Translations under genes and position numbers: made by a program | Shown here: positions 17,557 through 60,144 of the stretch, piece after piece | Position numbering within the stretch: position 1 is the first letter of the stretch | Layout of the letters: each line of letters opens with the position of its first letter | Notes under the pieces: model-generated | The model's database searches: none | What the model was told of the DNA's origin: nothing | Seen by the model: the letters and a program-made list of their open reading frames with translations, nothing else | NCBI GenBank assembly: GCA_029258915.1 | Contig: JAPDJU010000006.1 | Coordinates: forward strand, 101,183-165,182 | Length of the DNA: 64,000 bases | Direction: 5' to 3' | DNA from: Thermoproteota archaeon | GTDB taxonomy: Archaea > Thermoproteota > Thermoprotei_A > EX4484-217-1

Positions 17557-17617
17557 TATCTTGGCATCAAAACTGTATACGTAACTCATAGTGTCACCGA
17601 AGAAATAATTTGAGACT

Positions 17618-17632: not shown

Positions 17633-17663
17633 GTCTCACAAACTTATTATTGGTAGCCAGGGG

Positions 17664-38805: not shown

Positions 38806-38828
38806 ACACAATACATTACGTATTACCT

Positions 38829-39440: not shown

Positions 39441-39448
39441 ATACATTA

Positions 39449-39706: not shown

Positions 39707-39901
39707 ATAGGGTTAATAATGTTTTAAGTAAAAATGATGACATTAGATTAAGAAGCTCAAATTCTACTTGTCTTTACAAGCTCTCTCGAGGTTAGAATAG
39801 AAATCTACTAAGTTTCTATCTTGAGTAAAACTTTCGAGATAGTAAGCTTTCAATATGAAGAGTATCAATATTGAATCTAGGCTGCTTGTTGGGTATAAGC
39901 C

Positions 39902-41344
39902 ATGCCTAAACCTGCCTTGACTCTACTATCGAAAGATGAAATAGAGGTAGTTCATGAACGCTCATTGGAAATTTTAAGTGAAATAGGTGTTAAAATAGAA
40001 GATGAAAATGTAGTAAACATGTTAAAAAGTAAGGGCTTAGATGTAGAAGGCAAAGTGGTTAAGATACCTGCATATATGGTTAAAGAGGCTTTAGCCAAAA
40101 CACCTAGAACCATAACATTATATGATAGAAACGGTAAGCCATATCATGTTTTAGGCGAAGGAAAAACACTATTTAATCCAGGCTCAGCTGCAATTAAAAT
40201 ATTAGATTATGGTTCTACAGAGCCTAGACCACCAATACTTAAAGATTTGAGAGATTTAGTAATAGTGGTTGATGCTTTAGAAAATATTAAAGCTCAAAGC
40301 ACAGCTTTAGTACCAATCGATATACCAATAGAAGTCAGCGACTTAGTTAGATTATATCCTGTATTAAAGTACTCTGAAAAACCAATAATAACGGGTGCTT
40401 TCAGTGTTGAAGGCCTACACTATATGGTTAAAGCTCTTTCAATAGTTGTAAATGACTTAGATAAAAAGCCTTTAGCAATATTTGATGTTTGTCCTTCACC
40501 ACCTTTACAGTGGAGCAAAATAGCTATAGGAAATCTTGTTGATGGGGCAAAATACCATGTACCTTTAGAGATAATACCTATGCCTCAAATAGGTGCTACG
40601 GGTCCCGTAACAATAGCTGGGTCTCTCATACAGCATAATGCCGAAATTCTTAGCGGTATAGTTATCGCTCAACTTACTTCCCCGGGAACACCAATAATCT
40701 ATGGGGGCTCACCTTCAACATTTGAAATGAGGCATGGAACATCATTGATCGCGGGCATAGAAGCACTGCTTCTGGTAACAGCATATGTAGACATGGCTAA
40801 ATACTATGGGATACCTGTTCACGGATATTTAGGGTTGAGTGATTCAAAACAAATAGACTACCAAGCAGGATTAGAAACCATGTTAGGAGCCCTAATTGCT
40901 ACGATTAAAGGTGTCGATGTTGCTTCAGGACCTGGAATGCTTGAATTTGAAAGTGTTCAAAGCTTAGAAAAATTAGTGTTAGATAATGAGATATGCGGTT
41001 TAGCATTTAGATACGCTAAGGGCTTTGAAATTTCTAAAGACACATTGGCAATAAATGTTGTAAGGAAAGTTAGACATGGAGGCCACTTTTTAGCTCAAAA
41101 ACATACCGTTAAATATCTAAGAAGAGAACTATATATGCCAAAAATACTGGATAGGGCGGGCAGAGGAACAGCAATAAAAAGTATTATTCAGAAGGCACAT
41201 GAAGAAGTAATTAGAGTTCTTAAAGAACATAAAGCACCCATACTGGATAAAGACATTGAAAAAGAGCTAGTTGAGTACATAAATTCAGTAACATTAAAAT
41301 ATGGTTGCAATTTAGACACTATAATCTCTAAATACCGCATATAG
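39902..41344 (+). CDS. MttB-superfamily methyltransferase (non-pyrrolysine trimethylamine/glycine betaine:corrinoid methyltransferase-like)
   Basis: 480-aa uninterrupted ORF whose length and composition recall MttB/MtgB TIM-barrel methyltransferases; family call is by overall resemblance and is unverified. Confidence 0.6.
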   Translation: MPKPALTLLSKDEIEVVHERSLEILSEIGVKIEDENVVNMLKSKGLDVEGKVVKIPAYMVKEALAKTPRTITLYDRNGKPYHVLGEGKTLFNPGSAAIKILDYGSTEPRPPILKDLRDLVIVVDALENIKAQSTALVPIDIPIEVSDLVRLYPVLKYSEKPIITGAFSVEGLHYMVKALSIVVNDLDKKPLAIFDVCPSPPLQWSKIAIGNLVDGAKYHVPLEIIPMPQIGATGPVTIAGSLIQHNAEILSGIVIAQLTSPGTPIIYGGSPSTFEMRHGTSLIAGIEALLLVTAYVDMAKYYGIPVHGYLGLSDSKQIDYQAGLETMLGALIATIKGVDVASGPGMLEFESVQSLEKLVLDNEICGLAFRYAKGFEISKDTLAINVVRKVRHGGHFLAQKHTVKYLRRELYMPKILDRAGRGTAIKSIIQKAHEEVIRVLKEHKAPILDKDIEKELVEYINSVTLKYGCNLDTIISKYRI

Positions 41345-41526
41345 TATCTAACATCGATAAGCAACCATGCTTTCTATTAGTGACCATTAATATTATTAGA
41401 AAATAATATCACATTACATGGGAGAAGCAGGACGGGAGTTTCTTTAAAGTAAAGTTTAAATTTAGAATGTGCGAATGTAGTGGTCAAAAACGTTTAACAT
41501 TAAACAGCGCTTAAAGGAAGATTATC

Positions 41527-42393
41527 TTGGTTCAAGAGGAAGTCTTAGGCCTTATGTATGCTGTCGGCGCACTGCTCTCATTCAGTTTTTCACCTATACT
41601 GTATAAAGTAGGGTTAAAGAATGAACTACATGTTTTAGAAGCCAATACCTTAAGAGCATGGGGTGCTTTCCTACTACTAACACCGATATATGCTCTGCAT
41701 GGTTTTACACATACTATACCGTTAGAGCTTATAGTGTTCTTAGTTATTTCAGCTATTTCAGGACCTATAGTTGGCGATACATTTTTTCTATTTTCTATCA
41801 GGAAAGTTGGTGCTTCGATAGCTACGCCTTTAGCTAATACGTACTCCTTAATTGTCGTTGTACTTTCTGTTATCTTATTTAGTGAGAAGATAACTTTGTT
41901 GAATACTTTAGGTGGGGCTCTTATATTGTCATCCATATGGCTAGTATATCTGGAGAGGAGAAGTATTAAAGGTGACGTTGTTCCAGGATTATTTGCTGGA
42001 CTCGGCGCTGCTTCCGGATATGCTTTATCAATAATTTCTATGAATGTTCTTTTAAATAGTAAAATAGATCCTGTAACTATAATTTACTTTAGAATAATAC
42101 TTGTAGGTATTTTACTTACTCTCATAGTTAGAACACTGAACTTTAGCTTTAGAACAGTAAGTAGGAGAACATTGTTAGCTCTGTCTGTTGGAGGATTTTT
42201 CGGTGTAGGTTTTGGAGTAATATTGTTGCTTACTGCAATAACGTATTTGGGCGCTGGAAAAGCATCATTAATTGCTTCAGCAGCACCCGTAATTACAAGC
42301 ACTATTGCAATGGCTTTACTTAAAGAGAAATTTAGAGCTAAAGTAATAATTGCAGCCATACTCGTTTCCATAGGGGCTATTATGCTAAAATAG
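41527..42393 (+). CDS. EamA/DMT-family transporter
   Basis: Ten-TM pattern with two internal repeats. Confidence 0.65.
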   Translation: MVQEEVLGLMYAVGALLSFSFSPILYKVGLKNELHVLEANTLRAWGAFLLLTPIYALHGFTHTIPLELIVFLVISAISGPIVGDTFFLFSIRKVGASIATPLANTYSLIVVVLSVILFSEKITLLNTLGGALILSSIWLVYLERRSIKGDVVPGLFAGLGAASGYALSIISMNVLLNSKIDPVTIIYFRIILVGILLTLIVRTLNFSFRTVSRRTLLALSVGGFFGVGFGVILLLTAITYLGAGKASLIASAAPVITSTIAMALLKEKFRAKVIIAAILVSIGAIMLK

Positions 42394-42634
42394 CCTAGCC
42401 GCATTTTGGTTTTAAAGCATATTAGAAAGAGGCTTTTATGGCACGCATACTAAGTAGTGATGGTATTCTTAAAAATAGCAAAGAAATGCATGGGTGGTTT
42501 TAGAAACTTCATTTATCTTTAATTAATTAAAAATAGAGAAATTGTGAAAAGCATTTTTTCAACAACTGATAAAATGACAATCTATATTAAGGTTAAGATA
42601 ATTATTTTCTATGAGCACTTGAGGTGTTTAGTGT

Positions 42635-43441
42635 TTGTGCGCTGCTTTAGCTCCATTACTTCTAAGTAACCTATACTTCATTCAACGCGAAAAACTTGTA
42701 GGCTTCCACATAGTTGCTGTAAACAAGCCTGGAGCTTTGGTTAAAATATCTTCTGTACTAGGTAAATACAATGTTAATATTGTAGCTATAGTTTTCTCTT
42801 CCAGAATAGAATTGGGTGAGAAAGCCTCAATATTCATAATAACTGATTTTACATACTCAGAAATGAAACCTAAGGAAATAGAGGATAAGCTTAAAGAACT
42901 CGATGTAGCTCAGCACGTTAACCTGGTTAAACCTCAATTACCTAAAATACTAGTTGATCCCCACCATTTTCCTGTAGTTGATGATTTAAATAGAAGATTT
43001 ATACTTCTTTCAGAAAGCGCTATGAAAAGCGTTGTTGTGAGATTAAGAGAAACATTCGGAACAGGTGGATTAGCTTTTCTTTACCATCAAGGGAAAATAG
43101 TGGGCACTGAACTTGCAGAAACATACAGGGAAATGGGAATATCTGATTTAAAAGATGCTATCAAAATGTTTTTACTTCATCTTCTAGCTTTGGGAAGGTA
43201 TTTGGGAGAAATCACATACTATAAAGAGGACAGAATAATTATTAGACTACATAGAAATTGGGAATGCGAAGTAGCTATGAAGCATAATGTGAAGGGACCT
43301 GCTTCATATTTTGAAAGAGGAGTAGTAGCAGGGTTCTTAGAAAAATTTACTGGGAGAAAGGTGTCTGTACATGAAATTAAATGTCTAGCGAAAGGAGATC
43401 CATATTGTGAATTCCTAGTCACCTTTCTCCCACATAGATAG
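42635..43441 (+). CDS. ACT-domain plus V4R-domain protein, paralog of 37144-37968
   Basis: VGFHIVAVNKPGAL and IKCLAKGDPYCEF mirror the paralog; TTG start. Confidence 0.6.
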   Translation: MCAALAPLLLSNLYFIQREKLVGFHIVAVNKPGALVKISSVLGKYNVNIVAIVFSSRIELGEKASIFIITDFTYSEMKPKEIEDKLKELDVAQHVNLVKPQLPKILVDPHHFPVVDDLNRRFILLSESAMKSVVVRLRETFGTGGLAFLYHQGKIVGTELAETYREMGISDLKDAIKMFLLHLLALGRYLGEITYYKEDRIIIRLHRNWECEVAMKHNVKGPASYFERGVVAGFLEKFTGRKVSVHEIKCLAKGDPYCEFLVTFLPHR

Positions 43442-43461
43442 ATTAAAAATTTCTAAACACG

Positions 43462-43992
43462 TTAGTGGCTAATAGTTTCTTCTTTCACCTTACTCCATGG
43501 ACCTTTAACACCGCTGAATATTGTAAGTAAGGTAGTGTATACTATGCCAGGCATTAGAATGAACGCTAAGTTTATGTGTTTAAGAATAATGCTTACCATT
43601 TTCGGTTCAATATACGTTAAAACTGCCATAGGAAGTACGGTAAGCGTTATTATGAATACTCCGCCTGTAAGTATTGCAGCTACCGATGCATTTAATTTAA
43701 ACCTGTTTATTATGAAACTTTCTAACGCACCAAACAACGCCCCTAAAATAAGCATTTGGAAAACATAGGCTGGTGGAGCTATCCATATTATATATGACAT
43801 TAGGTTTCCTATTTCTGTCAATGTTTTATCTATTACTTCTTGAGGAGCATTTGCAGCTGTTAACTGGTAGACTATGATCTCTCGAATCAATTCATTTAAT
43901 GTACCAGTAATAGATAAGAAAGATGCTCCTAGGACAACGCCTGTTATGGCGCCGGCAATTAATCCGTAGAAAACATATTTATTTTCAACCAT
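43462..43992 (-). CDS. Membrane protein of unknown function
   Basis: 176-aa hydrophobic ORF. Confidence 0.35.
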   Translation of the reverse strand: MVENKYVFYGLIAGAITGVVLGASFLSITGTLNELIREIIVYQLTAANAPQEVIDKTLTEIGNLMSYIIWIAPPAYVFQMLILGALFGALESFIINRFKLNASVAAILTGGVFIITLTVLPMAVLTYIEPKMVSIILKHINLAFILMPGIVYTTLLTIFSGVKGPWSKVKEETISH

Positions 43993-44064
43993 AGTTTTCT
44001 GAACACCACGTGTGAAAAATGTTAATGTATTTCTAGGATTAATATGTTTTCCTAGGTGTAGGCA

Positions 44065-44727
44065 TTGTTTTCTATATTGCTGACTATACCTATATTGCTA
44101 GCTATTTTACCTGGATTAATTGCTCTAATGCTTATAGCTAAGAAGAAGTTTAAGTTATGGTTAGATGGTTGTTTAGGTGGAGGAGGATGGTTATTAGCAT
44201 TAGTGCTAAGGTTACCTATATTACAGTTTTCAGCAAAGACATTAAACCCTACGCATTTAAGTTTACTAGCAGCCTTCATGGCCGGTATTTTTGAAGAAAC
44301 CTTTAGATACTTAGTATTAAAATATAGGCTTTTCAGCAAAGGAAGCCTATGCAAAACAGTTTTATCTGTAGGTCTAGGTTGGGGGTTAACAGAAGCATTT
44401 TTAATATACGCTTTACAAGTGCCTTTATCATACACGATAACAGGGTATGACTGGACAGTTTACCTTCCAGGCGCTTTTGAAAGGAACATTGCTATAATAC
44501 TTCATGTAGCGTTAACGTTTATTATTGCATACTCTTTAATCTCAAATATCAGATATGTCATTTTGGCAATATTCCTCCATGGTGCAGTTAATTCATTAAT
44601 TATACCTATACTCTACGTAACTAAAGACCCATGGATTATAGAGTTAATACTAGCGTTAATTACAGTACCCATAGCTACATGTATTATCATGGTGTTAAAG
44701 CCTAAAATAAGCAGCATCAAACAATAA
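44065..44727 (+). CDS. CPBP-family intramembrane metalloprotease (CAAX protease / Abi-like)
   Basis: EExxxR motif (FEETFRY) and HxxxN motif (HGAVN) within TM helices. Confidence 0.6.
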   Translation: MFSILLTIPILLAILPGLIALMLIAKKKFKLWLDGCLGGGGWLLALVLRLPILQFSAKTLNPTHLSLLAAFMAGIFEETFRYLVLKYRLFSKGSLCKTVLSVGLGWGLTEAFLIYALQVPLSYTITGYDWTVYLPGAFERNIAIILHVALTFIIAYSLISNIRYVILAIFLHGAVNSLIIPILYVTKDPWIIELILALITVPIATCIIMVLKPKISSIKQ

Positions 44728-44755
44728 GATATTATGAACACTTATTAGGTCGCAT

Positions 44756-45622
44756 TTAACGTAGTTTAGCGGTTCTAATGGTACTTAGCGCCATAGCTAA
44801 AAGTATAAATGCAGAGCCTGCCATTTGTTTTAAGGTGAAAACTTCGTTTAACATTAAATATGAAAGTATTGACGCAAAAACAGGTTCTAGTAAGTAAATT
44901 ATTGCTGCTTGCGTACTTGAAACATACTTTTGACCGTAAAGTTGTAGAGTATTTGTGATAATAGTACATGCTGTTGCTAAGTAGAACAGTGGAGGTAAAG
45001 CCAGCATAAATTTTTCAAATGTTGGCATAGGGAAAAACACTGCTATGGGTAAGGCACCTAACGAGGTAAATATTATTTCATAAAATACGAGCTGAACTAA
45101 ACTATATTTTTTAGTATATACTCCTACAGCAATTATTTGAAACGCCCAAAAAACTGCACCTAGAAAAACAATTAAATCACCTATTCTAAAGTATAATCCA
45201 TTTGTTGTTGAGAGAAGATAAACTCCTATAATAGATAGAAAAACCGCTAATGTTAGTTTTACAGTAAATTTCTCTCTTCCCAAAATAACTTCGAAAACAT
45301 ATACAAGAACAACGCTAAGCCCTGTTATAAAAGCAGCATTAGAAGCTGTAGTATATTCTATACCTAATCCTTGAAGCTCAATGCCGCCGAAAAAAAGCAT
45401 TCCAAGAATAAAACCGGGTTTAATTGCTTCCCTAAGATTAACTCTTAAAAGTTTAAAATAAGCCATTAGTATGAGGAAAAGCGAGGCAATAGCAAACCTT
45501 AGTAAAACATAGTAGCTAAAGCCGATATTCGAAACTATAATTTTTATAAAAGGAAAAGTTGTACCCCAGAGGAAAGTAAGCATGAACAAAGCTGCATAGC
45601 CGACAATGCTAAGTTGCTTCAT
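44756..45622 (-). CDS. EamA/DMT-family transporter
   Basis: 288-aa polytopic membrane ORF with the duplicated EamA pattern. Confidence 0.65.
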   Translation of the reverse strand: MKQLSIVGYAALFMLTFLWGTTFPFIKIIVSNIGFSYYVLLRFAIASLFLILMAYFKLLRVNLREAIKPGFILGMLFFGGIELQGLGIEYTTASNAAFITGLSVVLVYVFEVILGREKFTVKLTLAVFLSIIGVYLLSTTNGLYFRIGDLIVFLGAVFWAFQIIAVGVYTKKYSLVQLVFYEIIFTSLGALPIAVFFPMPTFEKFMLALPPLFYLATACTIITNTLQLYGQKYVSSTQAAIIYLLEPVFASILSYLMLNEVFTLKQMAGSAFILLAMALSTIRTAKLR

Positions 45623-49244: not shown

Positions 49245-50156
49245 CTAATTTCCATGCGCTAAACCTACAAGTTCACTTATTTTCTGGAAACCTTCTTTAT
49301 CCATGTATTCTTCAATACCCTTAATAATTTCGTCTATTACCTTAAGTCCTTTAATTGCTATTACTGAAGCTATAGCAACAGCTGAAGCACCTGCTAAAAA
49401 GAATTCTACAGCATCAACCCAGTCCGTAACACCCCCAATACCTATAATAGGTATTTCAATGTTTTTGTATAGGTCAAAAACTACTCTAACAGCTATAGGG
49501 TGAATTGCTGGTCCGCTAAGCCCACCGTAAATATTTGAGAGAATAGGTTTTCTCGCATACACATCAATGACTACCGAACGTATACTGTTTATGGCTGAAA
49601 CAGCATCTGCTCCAGCTTTTTCCGCTTTTAAAGCCGAGTCCACTATTCTATCTGTTAAACCAAGCTTCACTATCACGGGTATTTTAAGTACAGACCTAAC
49701 TTCGTGAACTATTTTACCAACATACTCCGGGTCCTGACCTATTTCTAAACCATGGCCTTTAACATGAGGACAGCTTAGGTTTAGTTCTACAGCATCCGCA
49801 CCGTTTTCTTCAGCGAAAGAAGCTATTTCCGCGTATTCCTTAGACGTTGAAGCAGCAATACTAACCACTATGGGTACATCGTTTTTAACTATGTTACCTA
49901 AAATTTCTTTTAAAGCCCTATATCCGGGATTAGTTAAGCCTACAGCATTTACAATACCTGCCTTAGTATAAGCTACTATAGGAGTGTTATAGCCGACTCT
50001 AGGTTCCCAAGTAAAACTTTTAGTTACTATTGCCCCGATTCTTGTCTCTCTAATAACCCTATTTATGGTACTATAGCTTGACCCTAAAACACCTGAAGCA
50101 AGTAATATAGGTGTTTTTAGCTTTAATTTTGAAATTGAAACTTTAAGGTTAACCAT
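49245..50156 (-). CDS. pyrD: Dihydroorotate dehydrogenase catalytic subunit (class 1B)
   Basis: TIM-barrel DHOD motifs (VTKSFT, NLSCPHV, GIGGV); last gene of the pyr operon. Confidence 0.85.
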   Translation of the reverse strand: MVNLKVSISKLKLKTPILLASGVLGSSYSTINRVIRETRIGAIVTKSFTWEPRVGYNTPIVAYTKAGIVNAVGLTNPGYRALKEILGNIVKNDVPIVVSIAASTSKEYAEIASFAEENGADAVELNLSCPHVKGHGLEIGQDPEYVGKIVHEVRSVLKIPVIVKLGLTDRIVDSALKAEKAGADAVSAINSIRSVVIDVYARKPILSNIYGGLSGPAIHPIAVRVVFDLYKNIEIPIIGIGGVTDWVDAVEFFLAGASAVAIASVIAIKGLKVIDEIIKGIEEYMDKEGFQKISELVGLAHGN

Positions 50157-50162
50157 AGAACA

Positions 50163-50963
50163 TCACTCAATAGGCTTTTTTATCCCAGGAGGGTATGTGT
50201 AGTACTTCCCGAACTCCGTGTTTGCAAGTTCTTCAGCATAGAAAACAGGGCCATCAGAGCATACACGTAATCCTTTAGGGTCTAGTACGCATGAACCACA
50301 AATACCTATACCGCATTTAATGTATCTTTCAATAGAGATTTGACATTTAACTCCTAGTTCTAAGCATTTAAGCATAATTTTATATAGCATTCTTTCAGGA
50401 CCGCAGGCTAAAACATTATCGTATTTTGCAATAAGTTTTTCAGCAACTTCAACGGCAGATCCTTTAAACCCTAATGACCCATCATCTGTAGCAATGTAAA
50501 CCTCAGCATTGAATTTTCTAGCTTCACTGACGAACAGGAGTTTATCCTTGCTTCTAGCACCGATAATGTATGCTACATTTTTTCCTTTCTTCCTAAGTTC
50601 ATGTAGTGCATAAATTATTGGGGCAGCACCATATCCTCCAGCTATAAGTAGAAAATTACCTTTTTCATCTAAATTAAAACCCCTTCCATAAGGCCCCCTT
50701 ATAAATAGTCTTTCACCAGGCTTTAAACTATGTATTTTTCTTGTTGTTTCACCTACTGTAGCTACTGTTAACCTTAAAACGTTCCTTTCATACATTGAAG
50801 GGCTTATGGGAATTTCTTCAAAACCTGGAACCCAAACCATAACAAACTGTCCTGGAATAGGTTTTTCAATAGACGTTTCTAATAGAAGAGATTTAATGCC
50901 CTCAGCTTCCTTTACAACCTTAACTATCTCTGCTTTACACATTTTCAGTGTTTCAAGAAACAT
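50163..50963 (-). CDS. pyrK: Dihydroorotate dehydrogenase electron-transfer subunit
   Basis: FAD/NAD-binding fold with C-terminal Fe-S motif CGIGICGSC. Internal Met chosen as start; the track ORF extends to 51002. Confidence 0.75.
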   Translation of the reverse strand: MFLETLKMCKAEIVKVVKEAEGIKSLLLETSIEKPIPGQFVMVWVPGFEEIPISPSMYERNVLRLTVATVGETTRKIHSLKPGERLFIRGPYGRGFNLDEKGNFLLIAGGYGAAPIIYALHELRKKGKNVAYIIGARSKDKLLFVSEARKFNAEVYIATDDGSLGFKGSAVEVAEKLIAKYDNVLACGPERMLYKIMLKCLELGVKCQISIERYIKCGIGICGSCVLDPKGLRVCSDGPVFYAEELANTEFGKYYTYPPGIKKPIE

Positions 50964-52248
50964 TTTCAAAAACACCACCATATTTCTTAACATTAATTCC
51001 ATATCCTTTCTTAGAAACTATTTCACCATCAATAAATACTGGTTTTCCTCTAACAAATGTTGCTTTAACCTTTCCCCTAACCTTCCATCCATTAAATGGA
51101 GAGTGTTTTGCTTTACTGAAAAACGTTTTTGAATTCACAGTATACTCTTCACTTAAATCTACAACTGCTAAGTTTGCAAACATGTCCTCCTTTATTTTCC
51201 CGACGTATCTATGTAGTTCTAAAATTTTAGCTGGATTTGAAGAATACAGTTTAACTACATCTTTTAAGCTAATAATGTTCTTTACAGTTAAAGTTAACAA
51301 TAGAGGTAAGGCTGTTTCTAAACCTGGGAAACCGGGTTTAGGTTTTTCAGAGAATTTTTCATCGGAACTATGTGGTGCATGGTCTGTGGTTATAGCATCT
51401 ATTTTTCCTAGAGAAAGAGTTTTCAAAAGATTTTCCTGAACATTTTTGCTTCTAAGAGGAGGGTTAACTCTGAAGTACTTGTTTTTCAAGTGAAACTCTT
51501 TATTAAGCAATAAGTAATGGGGGCAAGTGTCTATGGTTATGTTACCTTTGTGTTTAACTAGTTTTACAATGTAGCTTGTTGTGACATGTGTTATATGTGC
51601 TTTAACCCTGTATTTCCTATGCAATTCTAATACTTTAACAGCTCCTGAAATCTCTGCATCTAAAGGTCTTTCATCGTTTTTAAACAAATATGGGTTTTCA
51701 GCATGAAAAACTGTTAGTATGTTTTTTGAAGAAACGTATTTTATAAGCTCTTCAAATACTTCTCTACAATTATGGAATAAGTTTTCAGGATAGACTTTTA
51801 CACCTATGGCTTTTCTTTCAAACCCCATTATTTCTCTTTTAACGTTTGGAACACCATAGTATAGAGCATAGTCTACTACAGATTTCTCGGAAGCAACTTT
51901 ATCTCTCATTTCTAAAACTGGTAAGGTGTTTGTTTTAGGCTTAGTATTAGGCATATCAGCTACTATAGTTACTCCTCCTGCCGCTGCAGCTGAGGTTCCA
52001 CTATAGAAGTCTTCCTTATATGATTCTTTAAAATCTCTCATGTGCGTATGAATATCTATTGCTCCAGGCAGTATCAATAATCTGTTTTTTAGAAAATTGA
52101 AGGTTTCTTCTTTAAACCTGCCTTTAAATGTTCCCTTAGATATTTTAGTTATAATGCCTAAATCGTTAATCTCTATAGTGACGTTGTCAACTATTCTCCC
52201 TTCGATAAACGCTTTCCCTATAATGACTGTTGCCACAATACCACACAT
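50953..52248 (-). CDS. pyrC: Dihydroorotase
   Basis: Amidohydrolase metal-binding DIHTHMRDF motif. Confidence 0.8.
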   Translation of the reverse strand: MCGIVATVIIGKAFIEGRIVDNVTIEINDLGIITKISKGTFKGRFKEETFNFLKNRLLILPGAIDIHTHMRDFKESYKEDFYSGTSAAAAGGVTIVADMPNTKPKTNTLPVLEMRDKVASEKSVVDYALYYGVPNVKREIMGFERKAIGVKVYPENLFHNCREVFEELIKYVSSKNILTVFHAENPYLFKNDERPLDAEISGAVKVLELHRKYRVKAHITHVTTSYIVKLVKHKGNITIDTCPHYLLLNKEFHLKNKYFRVNPPLRSKNVQENLLKTLSLGKIDAITTDHAPHSSDEKFSEKPKPGFPGLETALPLLLTLTVKNIISLKDVVKLYSSNPAKILELHRYVGKIKEDMFANLAVVDLSEEYTVNSKTFFSKAKHSPFNGWKVRGKVKATFVRGKPVFIDGEIVSKKGYGINVKKYGGVFENVS

Positions 52249-52249
52249 T

Positions 52250-52723
52250 CTAAAGCTGTTTAAACTGTTTAACTACATCCTCTCTAGTCGTATATCTTTC
52301 ACAGTATGAACATTGGAGAATTAAAGGCTCCTCCGATACCACCTTGAACCGAGGTTTAACATGCTCTCTAGGCCTGTTTGTTATACAGTTAGGGTTAGAA
52401 CATTTAACAATTCCATCGATTATTCTTGGAAGTTTTACTCTAACCTTCTTTACAACTTTGTAATCTCTTATGATGTTTATCGTAGCTTTAGGTGCTATTA
52501 AAGCTATCATGTTTACTTCTTTAGGAGCTAATTCTCTGCCTTCAACTTTAACTATATCCTTAAGTCCTAGTTTCTTACTTTCAACATTCATAACTATAGC
52601 TACTCTATATCCTTCAGATCCCTTTATACCTAAGATCTTTAAAACGTTAAGTGCGTTACCGGCAGATATATGGTCTATTACTGTTCCGTTCCTTATTTTT
52701 CTAACCAAGAGTTCTTCTTCCAT
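52250..52723 (-). CDS. pyrI: Aspartate carbamoyltransferase regulatory subunit
   Basis: C-terminal zinc domain with CSNPNC...CSYCE cysteines. Confidence 0.85.
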
Positions 52724-52725
52724 AC

Positions 52726-53646
52726 TTAATCACCACTAAGTATTAGTTTTAAAAGAGCCATTCTCACAGGAACACCATAAGATGCTTGTTTAAAATAGTA
52801 AGCATACCTTGTCACATCAACATCGAAGGATATTTCCTCAACTCTAGGCAGCGGATGTAATATCATTAGATCTTCTTTAGCATATTTTAAAATATTAGAG
52901 GTTACCCTATAGCTTCCTTTAACTTTTTCATATTCTGCTAGATCCGGAAATCTTTCCCTCTGAATTCTTGTAACGTAAAGTACATCAAGTCCCCCTAGAA
53001 CTTCTTTCAGGTTTTGTGTTTCTACGTATTTTACATTATGTTCTTCAAGAAATTCTCTTATCTCAGGCTTTACTCTGAGTTCCTGTGGAGATATGAGGTA
53101 TAGTTTTTTAGGTTTAAATATTGTTGAAGCTAAGATGAATGAGGAAGCTGCTCTACCATACTTGAGATCACCTAGAACACCTAAGGTTAAACCTTCAATA
53201 CCTCCTTTTTCCCTCCATATAGTATAGTAGTCTATCATGGCTTGTGTAGGGTGGTGATGTGTTCCATCTCCAGCATTTATAACAGGCGATTCAGCTATTT
53301 CCGCAGCGTAGCTGGCTGCTCCTTCTATCCTATGTCTAATAACTATCGCATTAGCGTAGGAGTCAAGCATTCTTATAGTGTCACCTAAATTTTCTCCTTT
53401 AGCTATAGACGTTTTTTCAACTTCTGAAAACACTAAAACTGACCCTCCAAGCCTAAGCATTGCTGTTTGAAAACTAAACATTGTTCTTGTACTTGGTTCA
53501 AAAAATGCTAGAGCTAAAACCTTACCTTGAAGAATGTTTATCCTTGATTTAGCATACTTCTCCATTTCCCTTGCTTCTTTGAATAATGTTATAAGATCTT
53601 CTTTTGTAAAATCGAGTATTGAAATAACATCTCTACCTTTAAACAT
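52726..53646 (-). CDS. pyrB: Aspartate carbamoyltransferase catalytic subunit
   Basis: STRT carbamoyl-phosphate-binding motif and HPLP motif. Start placed at the [13 protein letters not shown] Met; the track ORF extends to 53664. Confidence 0.85.
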
Positions 53647-54247
53647 GGTTAAACACCCTAACATAATCTATTATTTCACGATATTTTGTTTCAGAAATAA
53701 AACCTAAACTCCTAATATATTTGAGGAGCTCAGTAACTGTAAATATTGAAATTAACTTTACATTTTCCTTCTCCAAATTCCTTTTAGCACCCTGTTCTCT
53801 ATCAACAAATACTACAGCATATTCCGTTTTTACACTGTTTTCCCGCAGTATTCTAGTAGCTCTTAGTAAGCTACCTCCAGTAGTTGATACATCATCAACT
53901 ACTATAGCATATTTGCCTTCAGATATTTCTCCTTCAATAAGCTTCATAGCTCCATGCTCCTTAGGTTTCTTTCTAACATATGCTAAAGGCTTATTGAGAA
54001 TATAAGCTAAAATTGCAGCCCAAGGTATGCTTCCCGTTTCGATACCTACGATAACATCGACTTCAGGTATTTTCTCGACCACATTTTTATATGCTTCAAT
54101 TATTTCCCTAAGTAAATGGGGTTTTGAAAGCGCTTTTCTTAAATCTATGTAGTACGGGCTTTCAATACCTGATGCCAACTTGAATTTGCCAAAAAGAATT
54201 ATTCCCTCCTCGTAAAGTTTTTTAGCAAGCTCAGCCTTCTTCACCAT
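53639..54247 (-). CDS. pyrE: Orotate phosphoribosyltransferase
   Basis: PRPP-binding motif [11 protein letters not shown]. Confidence 0.85.
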
Positions 54248-54250
54248 AAT

Positions 54251-54970
54251 TTACCACCTCAACTTTTTTGCAAAGAACTCCGCAGATTTTTTAGGGTCTT
54301 TAGCCAGGTAAATGGATCTACCAATTATTTCAAAATCTGCTCCAGCACTAACAGCCGCTCCGGGTTCAGCACCTTGAACACCTACACCTGGGGATACTAT
54401 GATTTTATCCTTAGCTAGACTTCTTGCTTCTTTAATTAATTGAGGTCTTGTAGCAGGCAAAATTAATCCATCAACACCTGCCTTAAGTGAGGTATTAATG
54501 TTTTCATTAAACAACTTATTTATTGCTTCATCTGCTCCTTTATGCGTCATCGCACATACCGTTAAAAACCCCAGCCCGTTTCTTTTAGCTTCATCGACTA
54601 TTGTTTTCACAGCATCGTACCCTATTACTGCATGAGCTATTATAGCGTTAAAACCCATGAAAGCAGCTTCTTTAACGAGAAAGCTTGAAACATAGCCTAT
54701 ATCTGCTACTTTCATGTCTGCTATGAAAAAGCAGTTCCATGCTTTATTTGTAATCAGTTCTTTAACGGCATCCGGTGTAAGTGAAAGTATTGTTGGTAAC
54801 CCTATTTTCACGCCTGCAACATATTCTTCAACAGATGAAAGCAGCTTCTCCAATTTATCAGCTATTTTAAACCTATGTTCTCTATGTTCCGCATAGAGGT
54901 CTACGGCTAGAATTAACCTGCTATTCTTTCGAGAAGCTATCTTTAGAGCCTTCGAGACAAAAACTGACAA
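54251..54970 (-). CDS. pyrF: Orotidine 5'-phosphate decarboxylase
   Basis: LILAVDL and DMKVADIG motifs. Confidence 0.8.
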   Translation of the reverse strand: MSVFVSKALKIASRKNSRLILAVDLYAEHREHRFKIADKLEKLLSSVEEYVAGVKIGLPTILSLTPDAVKELITNKAWNCFFIADMKVADIGYVSSFLVKEAAFMGFNAIIAHAVIGYDAVKTIVDEAKRNGLGFLTVCAMTHKGADEAINKLFNENINTSLKAGVDGLILPATRPQLIKEARSLAKDKIIVSPGVGVQGAEPGAAVSAGADFEIIGRSIYLAKDPKKSAEFFAKKLRW

Positions 54971-55146
54971 GAGCCCGCACTAAATAATGGTTTTAGGGGG
55001 TTTTAAATTTTAACCTTTAAAATACACCTTGAAAAACCAATATGCTATTCAACCATAAACATTGTAGCCAATATTTTAAAGAAAAATCATTTAAAATATT
55101 TAGTAGGTGAACCAAAATAGGAGTTCTTGAAGAAATTAAAAGAATA

Positions 55147-55779
55147 ATGAGTACTGTAGAGGAAATTGACATCAGCAAATTAGAGAAGCTTGTTGAAGAA
55201 GCTTTAGAAAAGTATGAACCCTATGATGTTATTGAAAAAGCTTTAAGACCTGCTATGGAAGAGGTTGGCAGGAAGTTTGAACGTGGAGAATACTTTATTG
55301 CAGAACTTGTTTTAGTTGCTGATGTGTTTAAAGAGATTTTTAACAAATTCTTTAAACCAAGAGTTTCTAAGGTAAGTAAAGCTAAACCTATGGGTAAAGT
55401 AGTCATAGGAACTATTGAAGGAGATATTCACGATATAGGTAAAAGCATTGTAGCTGCAATTTTGGAAGCATCAGGATTCGAAGTTATAGACTTAGGTGTA
55501 GATGTTTCCGCTGATAAATTTGTTAAGGAAGCGGAAAAACATAGTGCAGATGTTATAGCTATGTCTTCTCTTCTAACAACAACAATGCTTAACATGGGCA
55601 AAGTTACTGAGTTGTTGAAAGAGAAGGGCATAAGAGATAAGTACATTGTTATTATTGGTGGGGCAGCTGCTTCAGAAGAGTTCGCTAGAAAAATTGGAGC
55701 AGATGCTTACGGCATAGACGCATATGATGGTTTAAAGAAATTAAAGAAACTTATTGCTGAAAAGCGGAAACAACAATAG
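55147..55779 (+). CDS. Corrinoid (cobalamin-binding) protein of a methyltransferase system
   Basis: B12-binding DxHxxG motif (GDIHDIGK) with an N-terminal helical cap. Confidence 0.75.
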   Translation: MSTVEEIDISKLEKLVEEALEKYEPYDVIEKALRPAMEEVGRKFERGEYFIAELVLVADVFKEIFNKFFKPRVSKVSKAKPMGKVVIGTIEGDIHDIGKSIVAAILEASGFEVIDLGVDVSADKFVKEAEKHSADVIAMSSLLTTTMLNMGKVTELLKEKGIRDKYIVIIGGAAASEEFARKIGADAYGIDAYDGLKKLKKLIAEKRKQQ

Positions 55780-55791
55780 ATTAAACTAGCT

Positions 55792-56850
55792 CTATAGTGA
55801 AACCTCAGGTAAGCCAATAAGTTTTCTAACAGCATTAACCTTAGCTAGTGCAAGTTTTTCTCCGAAACTTCTTTTAGGATATGGCCTATGAGTTACGCTT
55901 AACACTATTTTCCTGGGCCCATGCTTATCTAGCATTTTCTTAACAACTTTAACAAAGTCTTTAACATCAATGCTATCGTTTAAGACGAGGTCTATTGAAA
56001 CACCTGTATGGAAAACTGCTTTCCAACCTATATCCCTTCTAGCTTTAGAAACTCTATTTACCCAGTTTAATGCTGCTTCCACGGTGCTTTTACTGCAAAG
56101 ATCTAAAGGATGTATTCCATCATATATTTCAGCTAGTTTCCGTATGTATCCTAACTTAGTAACATCACCATCACAATGTAGGATGGCTTTTTTACCTTTG
56201 GCTTTAACAGCATTGACAAATATTCTATGCCATTTAAGATAGCAATTATCCATAAACCATGTAGGATATATTGGACTACTATAGGTAAACGCGTCATCAG
56301 CTATTCTAACAGCATCAACGATATCTAGTTCTCTAGCATATTTTATTACCTCTAAAATATACTTCGCCAGTTTATCATACAGTTTAATTGCTTTTTTACG
56401 GTTAAGCAGGAGTAGTTTTGAAAAATCTAAGTTATGATAAGCTAAATCATACTTATAGCCGCTTTCAGGCCTAGGAGGCATCATAGAATATTCAGAGTAT
56501 TCTGTAGGACCCACTACTTCAAAAACTATAAACAAATCCTTCCCATAGAAAGGTTCAACATTTTCCTTAAACCCCTTAACACAAGAATCTACTACATCAC
56601 TTTCACTAGGCCAGCTATAATCTGTTTCAACATCTAATCTCTCAACCCATTCAAGTAAACTTTCACCTTCACGCCTACGAAACGGTCCGCCACTGTAAAA
56701 CCAGTCTTCCCATAGATAAACCCATCCATGGCCTAAAAGCACATCCCCAAGTTTTGCTTCATGATTCTTCTCAATACTTTCAAAATGCAATGGCAAACGA
56801 TCGTAAAAAACATCTTCATAAACAGCATATACCAAGTCTCTACTTTTCAC
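55792..56850 (-). CDS. Uroporphyrinogen decarboxylase-family protein (MtaA/CmuA-like methylcobamide methyltransferase)
   Basis: N-terminal DRLP motif and ILHCDGD segment consistent with the URO-D fold. Confidence 0.55.
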   Translation of the reverse strand: MKSRDLVYAVYEDVFYDRLPLHFESIEKNHEAKLGDVLLGHGWVYLWEDWFYSGGPFRRREGESLLEWVERLDVETDYSWPSESDVVDSCVKGFKENVEPFYGKDLFIVFEVVGPTEYSEYSMMPPRPESGYKYDLAYHNLDFSKLLLLNRKKAIKLYDKLAKYILEVIKYARELDIVDAVRIADDAFTYSSPIYPTWFMDNCYLKWHRIFVNAVKAKGKKAILHCDGDVTKLGYIRKLAEIYDGIHPLDLCSKSTVEAALNWVNRVSKARRDIGWKAVFHTGVSIDLVLNDSIDVKDFVKVVKKMLDKHGPRKIVLSVTHRPYPKRSFGEKLALAKVNAVRKLIGLPEVSL

Positions 56851-57037
56851 ATCAAACCCCGTAAGCTAAACCTTCAAAAATACTTCTATTAAGACAGCTA
56901 TTAAATATTTAAAACGTAGGTATGCTTTTACATCTCATAAACATGTAAGTAAAAAATATAGCTTCTTAGATTATTTAAGGAAAAACTTTAATTAAAGTTT
57001 TTTCTTTAACAATCTGAACATATGTTGGTGTTATAAT

Positions 57038-58057
57038 ATGGTTGGTAAGCTTTCCCCTTCATTTTTAAGCAAATACGTTTTTTCCAGGATAGGTGTTAAA
57101 GATCCATCGGTTATTGTCGGTCCTTCCATCGGTGAAGACTCTGCAATCATCGATTTACATGATGGCAGGGTTTTGGTTGCCCACGTAGATCCTATAACAG
57201 GTGCCGTTGAGTTTCTCGGCTGGCTTGCCGTACATATATCCTGTAACGATGTTGCTGTAACTGGGGCTAAACCTCAATGGCTCCTATCTGTACTTTATCT
57301 TCCGGAAAACGCTAGTGAAGAACTTATAGATAAAATAACTAAACAAATAGATTCAGCTGCTAAGGAATTAGGATCTATGATTGTAGGAGGACATTCAGAA
57401 TATACCCCTGGACTAAATAGGCCATTAATATCCATGACAGCTCTCGGTATTGTAGATAAAGATAAGGCCGTAAGAACAGGCGGTGCTAGAGTAGGTGACG
57501 CTATTATAATGACTAAAACAGCTGCTATAGAGGGAACAGCAATACTTTCCACGGATTTTGCCGATCAGCTATTGTCTAAAGGAGTATCTCACGACGTTAT
57601 TAAACGCGGTGCTGAATTCATTAGAAAAGTTAGTGTTGTTAAGGAAGCATTATTACTTGCTAAAGAAGGTTATGCTACATCAATGCATGACCCTACTGAG
57701 GGAGGAATACTTGGAGGCTTAACCGAAATAGCATTTGCTTCTAATAAAACCATAGAGGTTTGGGAAGAAAAAATACCTGTAGCTGAAGAAACAGAGGTAA
57801 TGGCTAAAGCTCTTAACGTTGACATCCTTAAGCTCATAAGTTCTGGAGTATTAGTAGCAGCTGTCCCTAAGGCTCTTGCGGATGAAGCAGTATCGCTGCT
57901 TAGAAAACATGGAATTAAAGCATCTATAATAGGGTTAGTACATGAACACAAACATGGCCTAGTAGTTTTACATAGAAAAGATGGTAGAAAAGAAGTTTAC
58001 GATGAAGTTTATGTTGAAGATGAACTTGTTAGGTTATGGAAGGAGCTTAAAAGGTAA
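57038..58057 (+). CDS. PurM-like (AIR synthase-related) protein, HypE/ThiL-like
   Basis: PurM-fold N-domain motif GPSIGEDSAII...VAHVDP and SCNDVAVTGAKP; lacks the HypE C-terminal PRIC. Confidence 0.6.
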   Translation: MVGKLSPSFLSKYVFSRIGVKDPSVIVGPSIGEDSAIIDLHDGRVLVAHVDPITGAVEFLGWLAVHISCNDVAVTGAKPQWLLSVLYLPENASEELIDKITKQIDSAAKELGSMIVGGHSEYTPGLNRPLISMTALGIVDKDKAVRTGGARVGDAIIMTKTAAIEGTAILSTDFADQLLSKGVSHDVIKRGAEFIRKVSVVKEALLLAKEGYATSMHDPTEGGILGGLTEIAFASNKTIEVWEEKIPVAEETEVMAKALNVDILKLISSGVLVAAVPKALADEAVSLLRKHGIKASIIGLVHEHKHGLVVLHRKDGRKEVYDEVYVEDELVRLWKELKR

Positions 58058-58062
58058 GGCTT

Positions 58063-58884
58063 ATGGAAGTTCTTCCATTTGCAAAATGCAGATTAGACGG
58101 TAACTGTCTCAAATGCCCATTTAGAGGCAAAGCTATAGTTTATGGGCCATTTAAATCTCATAGAAGAGGAATCTCCATAGGGATAAACCTATTCCCATGT
58201 AGGAAAGTATGTAGTTTTAACTGTGTATACTGTTTTCGAGGATTTACAGAAGTAAAAACTTTAAAACCCGCTATTCCACCATACAGCCTTTCACCTGCTA
58301 TTCTTAGAGAAGCCTTAGAGAAAGCTATTAACACTATAGGTAGTGTTGATGCCATAGACTTTTCAGGTAGCGGTGAACCAACACTTCATCCTAAACTTAA
58401 ATCATACATAAATACAGTTAAAGAATTTGCTAAAGAAAAGAGCTTAAATGCAAGCATAGGTATATTTACAAATTCTACAACATTATTTAGAAACAACATT
58501 GTAAAGGTCTTAAAAGAATTAGATCATGTTGAAGCAAAACTTGATACCGTTATTGAGTGGAAGTTTAGAGTAATAAATAGACCTCACAAATTATTGTCGA
58601 TTAAGAAAATTATTGAAGGCCTATTTAGTTTTAGAAAAGTTTTCGAAGGAACATTAGCAATACAGATTATGCTGCTTAAATATAATAGGGTAAACAATTA
58701 TGGTTTAAAAGATGCAAGGCTTATTGGAGAAACATTGTTAACCATAGAACCCGACATAGTCCATGTATATGTTCCATACCGTATACCCCGCCTATCTAGT
58801 GTTTCAAAACCATCTAAACAGGAAGTTGTAGAGTTCTCTAAAATCCTAAGAGAATACGGCCTCAAAGTTAAATCGTTTATATGA
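58063..58884 (+). CDS. Radical SAM protein (activase-like)
   Basis: CSFNCVYC cluster motif and SGSGEPTLHP SAM-binding motif; additional N-terminal Cys pairs. Confidence 0.7.
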   Translation: MEVLPFAKCRLDGNCLKCPFRGKAIVYGPFKSHRRGISIGINLFPCRKVCSFNCVYCFRGFTEVKTLKPAIPPYSLSPAILREALEKAINTIGSVDAIDFSGSGEPTLHPKLKSYINTVKEFAKEKSLNASIGIFTNSTTLFRNNIVKVLKELDHVEAKLDTVIEWKFRVINRPHKLLSIKKIIEGLFSFRKVFEGTLAIQIMLLKYNRVNNYGLKDARLIGETLLTIEPDIVHVYVPYRIPRLSSVSKPSKQEVVEFSKILREYGLKVKSFI

Positions 58885-58899
58885 CCGCAGGCGAAGGTA

Positions 58900-60144
58900 A
58901 TGGGCGAAGAAGTTTTAAAGCCCATTCCAAGAGGTAAGAGAGTTTTCAAAGGCATAGATGTGTTTTTACTATGGGCTGGCGGTAATACTTGTCTTGCAAC
59001 AATATTTACAGGCGGTATTATAGGTCCTAAACTTGGAATACTTTATTCAATAGCCATAATACTTATTGGTTCAACTATAGGAGGGTTCTTACTAGGTTTA
59101 GTTGCATTACTAGGTGAACGGAAAGGTCTACCAACAATGGTTCTTACGAGAAAAGTCGTTACAACGAAAGGCTCCTATATCGCATCAGTTCTTAACGCTA
59201 TTCAGCTTATCGGCTGGACTTCAATACTTCTCTATGCAAGTGCTGAAGCAGCTGCGAGCGCTATGGAAGCTTTGCTTGGAGAAACAGTGCTTGTAAATAC
59301 TATAGTATGGGTTATTGTAATAGGTGTGGTTGAAACAGTATATACGTTAATAGGGCCTAAAAGATGGGTTCTATGTCAGAGAATAGCTGTTACTACATTA
59401 ATTATCGTGCTATGTTATGAAGCATATGCATTATTTAATTACATGCTATCTCAACCTGTGAGCCTTACGTCTCCCCCTAGCCGTGCTGATGTTCTTTGGG
59501 GTTTCGACATGGTTTTAGCTACAGCAGTTTCTTGGGCACCTCTTGTAGCAGACTATTCTAGACTTGCCAAATCCAGTTTAGGAGCTATTATAGGAACTTG
59601 GTGGGGATATACTACAACAAGCTACGTACTATACTCTATAGGTACGTTGGCCGCAGTAATTACAGGAGCTTATCTTGGTGATCCTACGCAGGTTGCAATA
59701 AGCTTAGGTCTTAGCGCAGTAGTTTTCATATTTATTGCTATAAGTGCTGTAACTACGAATCTACTAAATCTATATTCAGCAGTAGTATCAACAATGAACG
59801 TGTTCCCAAGAACTAGCTATAGGAGCCTCGTAATATTTTTCGGCACCATATCCACTGTTTTAGCAGCATTCCCCGTGTTCTTTATTTACTTTGAAGAATT
59901 CCTTTACTACATAGGCTCAGTATTTGTACCATTAATAGCAGTCCTAATAATACATTATATTTACGGGAAAAAGAAAATCATTACGTTAAGGTCTGCTGAA
60001 ACCGTTGGACTCATAAGCTGGATTATTGGTGTACTAATCAGCGGATTTGTTATTGAAAATATAGGGTTTGGAGCCACCATAGTAGCATTACTAACAACAG
60101 CTTGTGTAGATGCATTACTACTAACAATTATATCTACAAAGTAG
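58900..60144 (+). CDS. NCS1-family nucleobase/vitamin-precursor:cation symporter (cytosine/HMP permease-like)
   Basis: Twelve-TM pattern with N-terminal WAGGNT motif. Confidence 0.65.
   Translation: MGEEVLKPIPRGKRVFKGIDVFLLWAGGNTCLATIFTGGIIGPKLGILYSIAIILIGSTIGGFLLGLVALLGERKGLPTMVLTRKVVTTKGSYIASVLNAIQLIGWTSILLYASAEAAASAMEALLGETVLVNTIVWVIVIGVVETVYTLIGPKRWVLCQRIAVTTLIIVLCYEAYALFNYMLSQPVSLTSPPSRADVLWGFDMVLATAVSWAPLVADYSRLAKSSLGAIIGTWWGYTTTSYVLYSIGTLAAVITGAYLGDPTQVAISLGLSAVVFIFIAISAVTTNLLNLYSAVVSTMNVFPRTSYRSLVIFFGTISTVLAAFPVFFIYFEEFLYYIGSVFVPLIAVLIIHYIYGKKKIITLRSAETVGLISWIIGVLISGFVIENIGFGATIVALLTTACVDALLLTIISTK

Follow-up and report, generated by a model that had tools for sequence, protein, structure and literature searches.

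A deeply divergent archaeal protein family with a predicted URO-D/MtaA-type fold and a linked corrinoid protein: a candidate two-gene methyltransferase module

The window analysed here, a stretch of 64,000 nucleotides from a Thermoproteota archaeon (assembly GCA_029258915.1, contig JAPDJU010000006.1, positions 101,183 to 165,182 of the forward strand), carries two convergent genes which we call ORF A (55147-55779, + strand) and ORF B (55792-56850, - strand). Their stop codons lie 12 nt apart, on either side of a short spacer (55780-55791). ORF A encodes a 210-aa corrinoid (cobalamin-binding) carrier protein, and ORF B, which has a GTG start, a 352-aa member of an unnamed archaeal family, predicted to fold as a TIM barrel of the type found in uroporphyrinogen decarboxylase (UROD, HemE in bacteria) and in the methyltransferase MtaA. 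We propose, with a probability of roughly one half, that the two genes form a corrinoid methyltransferase module in which ORF B represents a new, deeply divergent family of the URO-D superfamily with a His/Asp/His site, acting most likely on the donor side of the reaction.

Results

Judged from its sequence, ORF A is a corrinoid protein of the methyltransferase type. An N-terminal four-helix cap (B12-binding_2, PF02607, 1e-17) precedes a Rossmann B12-binding domain (PF02310, 1.8e-29). The motif D93-I-H95-D-I-G98, which includes the lower-ligand histidine H95, is followed after 41 residues by S140-S-L142 and after another 28 by G171-G172. This spacing is canonical and the complete DxHxxG-41-SxL-28-GG pattern is kept in 21-22 of 22 related corrinoid proteins or domains. 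Against TIGR02370 the protein scores 191.7 bits, for a cutoff of 215.3, with MtbC and MtgC as next-best models, and its closest solved relative is the trimethylamine corrinoid protein MttC (7xcn_M, E 2.8e-43). The initial annotation had taken it for a methyl carrier from its DxHxxG motif, an assignment borne out by the domains, the full motif and this relative. ORF A has the two-domain architecture and the DxHxxG-SxL-GG motif in common with MttC, MtbC and MtgC, but differs from them in falling just below the TIGR02370 cutoff and in having a partner gene of URO-D fold instead of MttB, MtbB or MtmB.

ORF B itself is invisible to profile libraries. It has no match in Pfam (searched to E<=10) or NCBIfam (to E<=0.01), including PF01208 (gathering cutoff 23.9 bits), TIGR01463, NF040654, NF041608 and the HemE model TIGR01464. 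A word-indexed search of 5.8e9 proteins retrieved 51 clusters of homologues, ranging from 98% down to 33% identity; none has a precomputed Pfam domain, and all those named by their source are labelled 'hypothetical'. The 98%-identical protein, RLG76202.1, is a 'hypothetical protein DRO23_01605, Thermoprotei archaeon', and the next relatives come from metagenome-assembled genomes (MAGs) labelled Desulfurococcales. Because homologues span this whole range of identity and 29 positions are invariant in an alignment of 45 family sequences (A1), sequence conservation indicates that ORF B is a real gene. The family proper, defined by an exhaustive HMMER search of 1.84e9 proteins with A1, comprises 22 clusters at E<=1e-30 belonging exclusively to uncultured Thermoproteota, Bathyarchaeia and Asgard archaea. 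No description of it was found in the literature searched.

Direct sequence comparison gave no indication of its fold: the A1 profile returned noise only against all PDB sequences, hhalign of A1 with E. coli HemE reached a probability of 1.3%, and the global-mode alignment of the family with MtaA, CmuA and HemE was meaningless. An AlphaFold2 model computed from A1 had a pLDDT of 95.7 and a pTM of 0.93. When this model was used in a fold search, MtaA came first and UROD second, followed by a clear fall to MetE (16.9) and to generic TIM barrels (<=14); Foldseek returned the identical ranking. The predicted structure is a distorted (beta/alpha)8 barrel whose superposition with UROD and MtaA scores high, well ahead of other TIM barrels. 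On the strength of structure prediction and fold search, and not of any profile, the fold of ORF B is that of URO-D/MtaA. This part of the initial annotation, which had read a uroporphyrinogen decarboxylase fold from the sequence alone, is thus upheld.

A sequence bridge to the superfamily also exists. The search with A1 yielded 292 matches at E<=1e-3, about 260 of which are weaker than the family (E 1e-10 to 1e-3) and align with ORF B positions 139-243. PF01208 is present in all eight sampled proteins of this tail, as well as in P0111 and in P0159-type matches; the A1 profile therefore matches PF01208 proteins at E 1e-10 to 1e-5, establishing remote homology with the URO-D superfamily. In NCBIfam, the tail proteins are recognized by the MtaA/CmuA, MtaA and MtbA models with 29-110 bits and by HemE in two of ten cases only, weakly. 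Since these relatives carry PF01208 and prefer MtaA/CmuA models over HemE, ORF B belongs, as a remote outlier, on the methyltransferase side of the superfamily and is not a HemE. The A1 HMM scores MtaA at 4.4 bits and detects no similarity to CmuA. In the profile comparison that had been suggested to separate MtaA-like proteins from HemE, the relatives fall on the MtaA/CmuA side; ORF B itself matches neither.

The nearest sequence relatives of ORF B (E down to 1e-10) form a subgroup of PF01208 proteins with an 'H-[ST]-D-G' signature, similar to ORF B over some 100-170 residues (139-243, sometimes as far as 323). Common motifs are ADD, H-x-D-G-[DN], H-P/S-L-[DE] and a C-terminal T-H. Among the 80 nearest tail proteins, the aligned residue is conserved at H225 and G228 in all 80, at D186 in 77, at D185 in 74, at D227 in 58 (with Cys in 19) and at H247 in 53. 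In two proteins, P0086 and P0159, a URO-D domain of the H-S-D-G type is naturally fused to a complete MtgC/MtbC-like corrinoid-binding domain, so that the coupling to a cobalamin domain is direct and physical. P0085 and P0086 sit among bacterial-type genes. No corrinoid gene was seen in the vicinity of P0085, and the contigs that carry P0099 and P0111 (<=2.2 kb) give no informative context. The neighbours of P0086 (L153, 8001-9782) are oligopeptide/sugar ABC transporters, a GFO/IDH/MocA oxidoreductase, a split transketolase, an MR/MLE enolase-superfamily gene and a GntR regulator, a setting of sugar-transport, transketolase and sugar-acid genes.

The active site was compared with that of MtaA through P0099 as an intermediate, using the MtaA sequence of PDB 4ay7 recovered from a PDB alignment made with CmuA (from plasmid KT950741). 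On the ORF B profile, LHSDGDI and ISPTH of P0099 fall over LH225xD227G and TTH321; on MtaA, HSDG falls over HICG and PTH over PGC. Local hhalign of A1 with MtaA places VRIADD on IAIADP and LH-C-D-G on LH-I-C-G, a consistent register but a non-significant one (P 0.015). By these alignments, the zinc-ligand positions His-x-Cys...Cys of MtaA correspond to His225-x-Asp227...His321 in ORF B, with D227 and H321 at the places of the two cysteines. H225, D227 and H321 are invariant in 50 of 50 family sequences; a Cys found at position 226 in 26 of the 50 is not at the ligand position. H321 is also the equivalent, placed via P0099, of H339 in human UROD. In the model, the invariant residues are found at or just after consecutive predicted strands (114-120, 185-186, 225-228, 247-250, 282-283 and 320-325), which would put them on the usual active-site, or catalytic, face of a TIM barrel. 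The predicted metal or active-site residues are H225, D227, H247, D250 and H321, together with E117, E120, H139, R182, D185, D186 and Y195.

This ligand set bears on the substrate. S-methyltransferases of the UroD superfamily have His-Cys-Cys, while in O-methyltransferases and O-demethylases the cysteines are replaced by Asp or Glu, or are lost or non-ligands (Kountz & Balskus, PMC10418091). His-Asp-His in place of His-Cys-Cys makes a second methyltransferase (MT2) acting on coenzyme M (CoM) or homocysteine unlikely and favours a hard (O or N) substrate atom, so that ORF B probably moves methyl groups to or from a non-sulfur compound. The initial annotation had placed ORF B in the MtaA/CmuA type and made it the MT2 component. 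The former does not hold, given that PF01208, TIGR01463 and HemE models all fail to match and that His-Cys-Cys is missing, and the latter has become doubtful with an invariant His-Asp-His where a thiol-type zinc site would be expected.

To examine the association of the two genes, 55 genome loci and 80 metagenome loci, together with contigs from an exact look-up, were merged at ORF B identity >=97% into 102 groups, and each was viewed over +/-6-10 kb; linkage was counted in the 92 groups with >=800 nt downstream of ORF B. In 14 of these 92 dereplicated groups, ORF B is directly adjoined at its 3' end by a corrinoid gene, which is co-directional in six and convergent, as in the window, in eight. 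The gap is -38 to +12 nt in 13 of them and +100 nt in the remaining one; in the co-directional genome loci it is -28 to +3 nt, and such near-abutting or overlapping frames suggest a translationally coupled two-gene operon. This tandem form occurs in Pyrodictiaceae/Pyrodictium MAGs, in two other Thermoproteota MAGs and in one Hodarchaeaceae (Asgard) MAG, and the linked lineages also include Desulfurococcales-like MAGs. The genes flanking the pair differ completely between lineages. Identity to the window copies declines jointly for ORF B and the corrinoid protein, from 72% and 68-73%, respectively, to 43-50% and 37-47%. Because the pairing recurs in 14 dereplicated loci, in two arrangements and between unrelated flanks, there is good evidence that the products of ORF A and ORF B work together in the linked clade, as had been supposed from the single pair in the window.

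The neighbour-joining tree of ORF B places all linked genes in a single clade, which also includes one sub-branch that lost the linkage. Neither an MT2 nor a RamA/RACE reductive activase is among the recurrent neighbours of the linked loci, and no third methyltransferase was found in any of the 14 linked groups. At one locus (L062, 10001-11030), all that can be recognised of an ORF B homologue beside an intact corrinoid gene is its C-terminal third (residues 236-352, 50% identity), so that this copy of the pair may be decaying. In the 72%-identical relatives (L001/L002, 9899-13904), the corrinoid gene is followed by genes for a Peripla_BP_2 binding protein, an HmdB/PylB/BioB-like radical SAM protein, a FecCD permease and an ABC ATPase. 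The binding protein resembles BtuF weakly (29 bits), and this cluster, which is missing from the window, may be an uptake system for cobalamin or another metal chelate.

Two other genes related to cobalamin lie in the window. The first (39902-41344, + strand) encodes a 480-aa methyltransferase of the MttB superfamily (PF06253, 3.8e-86; TIGR02369, 378.6 bits for a cutoff of 525); it has no in-frame stop and is therefore of the non-pyrrolysine type. The second (34132-35526, + strand) encodes a B12-binding radical SAM protein whose closest models, HpnJ and BchE, score far under their cutoffs; it is flanked by feoB (31164-33239) and a gene for a Na+/sulfate-citrate-type symporter. With ORF A and ORF B they span 22.7 kb, in agreement with the count of at least three cobalamin-dependent functions within 25 kb made at the outset, counted here as cobalamin-related genes. 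The MttB-like gene is bracketed by two pairs of a V4R/ACT-domain regulator and an EamA transporter (37144-45622; individual genes at 37144-37968, 41527-42393, 42635-43441 and 44756-45622).

MttB-like homologues are common in lineages that have ORF B (Thermofilaceae, Desulfurococcales, Bathyarchaeia, Methanomethylicia and MAG DRJ40). No corrinoid gene accompanies the MttB-like gene of the window, while in the homologous loci L150, L151 and L152 a corrinoid gene is immediately upstream in three of three. In L151 (9324-9999; Infirmifilum sp., CP182482.1) this upstream protein is spread over two ORFs, one with B12-binding_2 alone and one with B12-binding alone, either by frameshift, as a pseudogene or as a genuinely split carrier. 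L152 (8368-11443 of contig NODE_61_length_144671, the MttB cluster of Thermoprotei archaeon DRJ40_09900) contains an operon of a 325-aa Meth_synt_2 protein, a corrinoid protein and MttB. The Meth_synt_2 protein retains the H-x-C...C thiol-type zinc motif, and the gene content suggests a route from methylamine or a quaternary amine through the corrinoid to homocysteine, yielding methionine, in a non-methanogenic Thermoproteota archaeon. In logic this route resembles the bacterial MtgBCD system (PMC12478193). Around ORF B, the only Meth_synt_2 matches, in one Thermoprotei and three Asgard loci, were at distances of 2.5-6 kb and too weak to point to a partner. ORF A is 47-49% identical to the MttB-adjacent corrinoid proteins and 37-47% identical to the tandem ORF B-adjacent ones, and a corrinoid-protein tree does not assign it to either set of orthologues. 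Because ORF A is about equally similar to both, a single carrier could possibly serve the MttB-like enzyme and ORF B in the window organism.

Other neighbours of ORF B recur as well. In one Bathyarchaeia lineage, ORF B lies between a ribokinase/ribose-1-phosphate-kinase-like gene (nine groups, divergent) and a uridine-phosphorylase-like gene (ten groups, of which nine have it convergent at 15-48 nt). In seven genome loci, a gene for a Rih-type nucleoside hydrolase is located about 4 kb from ORF B. In the Bathyarchaeia loci L049-L061, the arrangement from about 1.2 kb upstream to 5 kb downstream is conserved and comprises the ribokinase/ribose-1-phosphate-kinase-like gene, the ORF B homologue, the uridine-phosphorylase-like gene, ECF/ABC-type transporters and the Rih-type hydrolase; the whole resembles an island for nucleoside catabolism in which the URO-D-fold member is unexplained. 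In 12 groups, most of them from Thermofilaceae or other Thermoprotei, RpiA is encoded no further than 6 kb from ORF B, in six of them divergently and within 600 nt. A third lineage has a stand-alone B3_4 domain gene before ORF B on the same strand, and in a second Bathyarchaeia lineage the neighbours, an OB-fold protein and an M28-like peptidase, are unrelated. Together with the pyr/pur block of the window, these genes make up a weak but repeated pentose/nucleoside theme around ORF B.

The convergent pair indeed stands beside a pyr operon, as initially annotated: a complete pyrimidine operon (pyrD, pyrK, pyrC, pyrI, pyrB, pyrE and pyrF; 49245-54970, - strand) is directly upstream of ORF A. The AT-rich interval between pyrF and ORF A (54971-55146) presumably contains the ORF A promoter, and a second AT-rich interval (56851-57037), between ORF B and an AIR-synthase-family gene on the + strand, that of ORF B. 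Divergent from ORF B are, in order, genes for this AIR-synthase-family protein, a small radical SAM protein, a CytX/NCS1 permease, guaA, a purine/xanthine-type phosphoribosyltransferase and purB. The first three are co-directional (57038-60144); the AIR-synthase-family protein scores under the HypE, ThiL and SelD cutoffs, the radical SAM protein has 273 aa and the permease is CytX-like. Among the annotated ORFs of the window there are no genes for cobalamin synthesis, uptake or reactivation, and none for a reductive activase (RamA/RACE) or a pterin- or MtrH-type methyltransferase. An Rfam scan of the whole window detected no riboswitch or other RNA family.

The window is archaeal in its gene content (MCM with an intein, RFC, Orc1/Cdc6, CCA-adding enzyme) and has a GC content of about 35%. 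The MCM helicase gene (7531-11106, - strand; 1191 aa in total) is split by an intein with a LAGLIDADG homing-endonuclease domain. The Orc1/Cdc6 gene (16011-17276, - strand) adjoins that of a TnpB/Cas12f1-like TNB-domain protein (17610-18893, + strand). Given Orc1/Cdc6 and the nearby genes for MCM and for the small and large RFC subunits, a replication origin may lie near 16011-18893.

Discussion

We consider ORF A and ORF B best explained as a two-gene corrinoid methyltransferase module. In the proposed mechanism, His225-x-Asp227...His321, with His247 and Asp250 nearby, would bind a hard Lewis-acid metal, probably Zn2+, which would polarise an O-methyl (or N-methyl) substrate. Co(I) cobalamin carried by ORF A would then attack the methyl group to give CH3-Co(III), as in the O-demethylase-type methyltransferase I enzymes of the same superfamily. 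The acceptor step would be left to an enzyme encoded elsewhere, most likely a MetE-like methylcorrinoid:homocysteine methyltransferase comparable to that found beside MttB in L152. A tight two-gene operon of methyltransferase and corrinoid protein with N/O ligands gives ORF B the look of a donor-side, O-demethylase-like enzyme.

Among the known systems close to ORF B, the methyltransferase I enzymes of URO-D fold (MtvB, OdmB, VdmB, MtoB, CdmB and the N-domain of CmuA) likewise have a cognate corrinoid gene adjacent and the Cys ligands replaced by carboxylates or lost (PMC10418091). Here too, Co(I) attacks a Lewis-acid-activated methyl donor, the chemistry predicted for ORF B. The comparison is by description, the sequences examined being that of CmuA, which has no detectable similarity to ORF B, and, indirectly, that of CdmB. 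The clusters of these enzymes are detectable by PF01208 and normally add an MT2 and a reductive activase, in contrast to the ORF B module, which has neither and escapes Pfam. The methylcobamide:coenzyme M methyltransferases MtaA, MtbA and MtsA (PDB 4ay7) differ in several respects: ORF B is 17% identical, matches none of their models (TIGR01463, NF040654, PF01208), has His-Asp-His against their His-Cys-Cys, and occurs mostly in non-methanogens.

Several observations weigh against this proposal. No corrinoid gene was found within 6-10 kb in 85% of the family loci, yet every invariant residue is kept there, and the confinement of the linked loci to one clade implies few independent events. The evidence for joint action thus covers the linked clade, and we do not extend it to corrinoid dependence of the whole family. 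The window has no activase, no second methyltransferase and no cobalamin transporter. The ligand mapping goes by sequence transitivity and a non-significant hhalign register instead of a residue-level structural alignment, and the bridging H-x-D-G URO-D proteins are themselves uncharacterised. Moreover, the His-Asp-His site need not bind zinc, since CdmB, the chloromethane enzyme of the URO-D superfamily, works without metal (PMC13222342). Finally, a MetE/MtaA-like MT2 role of ORF B with a non-thiol acceptor is possible.

ORF B could also be the MT2 of a three-component system, in which the MttB-like enzyme would methylate ORF A from methylamine or a quaternary amine and ORF B would pass the methyl group to the final acceptor, as MtaA and MtbA do with coenzyme M. 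The lone MttB-like gene of the window, set against the three examined homologues, which have their own corrinoid gene, would fit this arrangement, as would the position of MttC as closest solved relative of ORF A, the identity of ORF A to MttB-adjacent carriers, which equals that to the tandem ORF B-adjacent ones, the top rank of MtaA in the fold search and the presence of MttB-family genes in the same lineages, with both genes in MAG DRJ40. For MT2 genes, mtaA and mtbA among them, linkage to corrinoid genes is unusual, and this would account for the 85% of ORF B loci that have no corrinoid neighbour. However, ORF B has no His-Cys-Cys, so that thiol activation as in MtaA, MtbA, MtsA and MetE is unlikely; none of the other 101 dereplicated loci has an MttB gene at 10 kb or less from ORF B; the MT2-like gene that does accompany MttB and its corrinoid protein in L152 encodes a Meth_synt_2 protein (HxC...C) and not an ORF B homologue; and a translationally coupled pair of methyltransferase and corrinoid protein is typical of donor-side enzymes. 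We judge this explanation unlikely. Another division of labour, in which ORF B would run both half-reactions with one corrinoid partner and shuttle a methyl group between two related small molecules, has a precedent in the superfamily: as far as the account in PMC10418091 of Tallant et al. (2001) goes, MtsA does both with MtsB as methylthiol:CoM methyltransferase. It would also fit a conserved unit limited to methyltransferase and corrinoid protein. Yet MtsA has the thiol-type ligand set that ORF B does not have, no candidate substrate pair presents itself, and a third component could lie further away than the +/-6-10 kb viewed, all of which leave it quite improbable.

A more radical alternative is that ORF B is a metal-dependent or cofactor-free TIM-barrel enzyme independent of corrinoid (a decarboxylase, hydrolase or isomerase) acting on a pentose- or nucleoside-related metabolite, and that the corrinoid gene is a historical neighbour in one clade. 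Its main support is the pentose/nucleoside neighbourhood (uridine-phosphorylase-like, ribokinase/ribose-1-phosphate-kinase-like, Rih-type and RpiA genes), to which may be added the position of ORF B in the window within a pyr/guaA/phosphoribosyltransferase/purB block, the missing corrinoid gene at most loci and the fact that UROD, the second-best structural match, is a cofactor-free decarboxylase. Mere neighbourhood, on the other hand, agrees poorly with frames that overlap or nearly abut in six lineage groups and with an adjacency that survives inversion and complete turnover of the flanks. In addition, the nearest sequence relatives score as MtaA/CmuA-like, two of them being corrinoid-domain fusions, and lineages without the linkage do encode corrinoid-dependent MttB systems. 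We regard it as rather improbable. That ORF B is a genuine HemE and ORF A a part of some unrelated enzyme, the outcome named beforehand as fatal to a role in methyl transfer, is scarcely tenable. UROD does stand second in the fold search; against this, PF01208 and TIGR01464 do not match, the T-K-G of HemE is H-x-D in ORF B, the bridging relatives match MtaA/CmuA models in preference to HemE, and the gene is operonic with that of a corrinoid protein. Tetrapyrrole genes (hem, cob, ahb) are absent from the annotated ORFs of the window and from the annotated neighbours in related loci, and a phmmer search with HemE found no URO-D-family protein in the fetched loci.

The neighbourhood of ORF B may also be read within the corrinoid module. 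As a speculative extension, which we hold to be a long shot, the members of the ORF B family, possibly along with the wider H-x-D-G branch of URO-D proteins, would be corrinoid-dependent O-demethylases for methylated sugars. In these archaea, most of them thermophilic, RNA with its many 2'-O-methyl groups could supply the substrate in the form of 2'-O-methyl-ribonucleosides or 2-O-methylribose. With the ether oxygen of the ribose bound at the hard His/Asp/His metal site, Co(I) on ORF A would take the methyl group; the demethylated product would go into the salvage of nucleosides and pentoses through uridine phosphorylase, ribose-1-phosphate kinase or ribokinase and RpiA, and the methyl group would be recovered, e.g. 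in methionine. The idea is drawn from gene context only, namely the Udp-, PfkB- and Rih-like neighbours, RpiA, the B3_4 gene (of aminoacyl-ribose editing type), the pyr/pur block and the sugar-transport/transketolase context of P0086.

Corrinoid methyltransferase systems let anaerobes use methanol, methylamines, betaines, methoxy-aromatics and chloromethane, and each new substrate-specific family has opened a new piece of carbon cycling. The hosts of the ORF B family, many of which come from hydrothermal sediments, carry a member that neither Pfam nor NCBIfam detects, so counts of URO-D-type methyltransferases in archaeal MAGs based on PF01208 miss at least one clade. Being small and self-contained, the two-gene unit is biochemically tractable. 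If the ligand set predicts the substrate correctly, as a non-thiol compound, this family would mark an unrecognised methyl-transfer reaction in these archaea.

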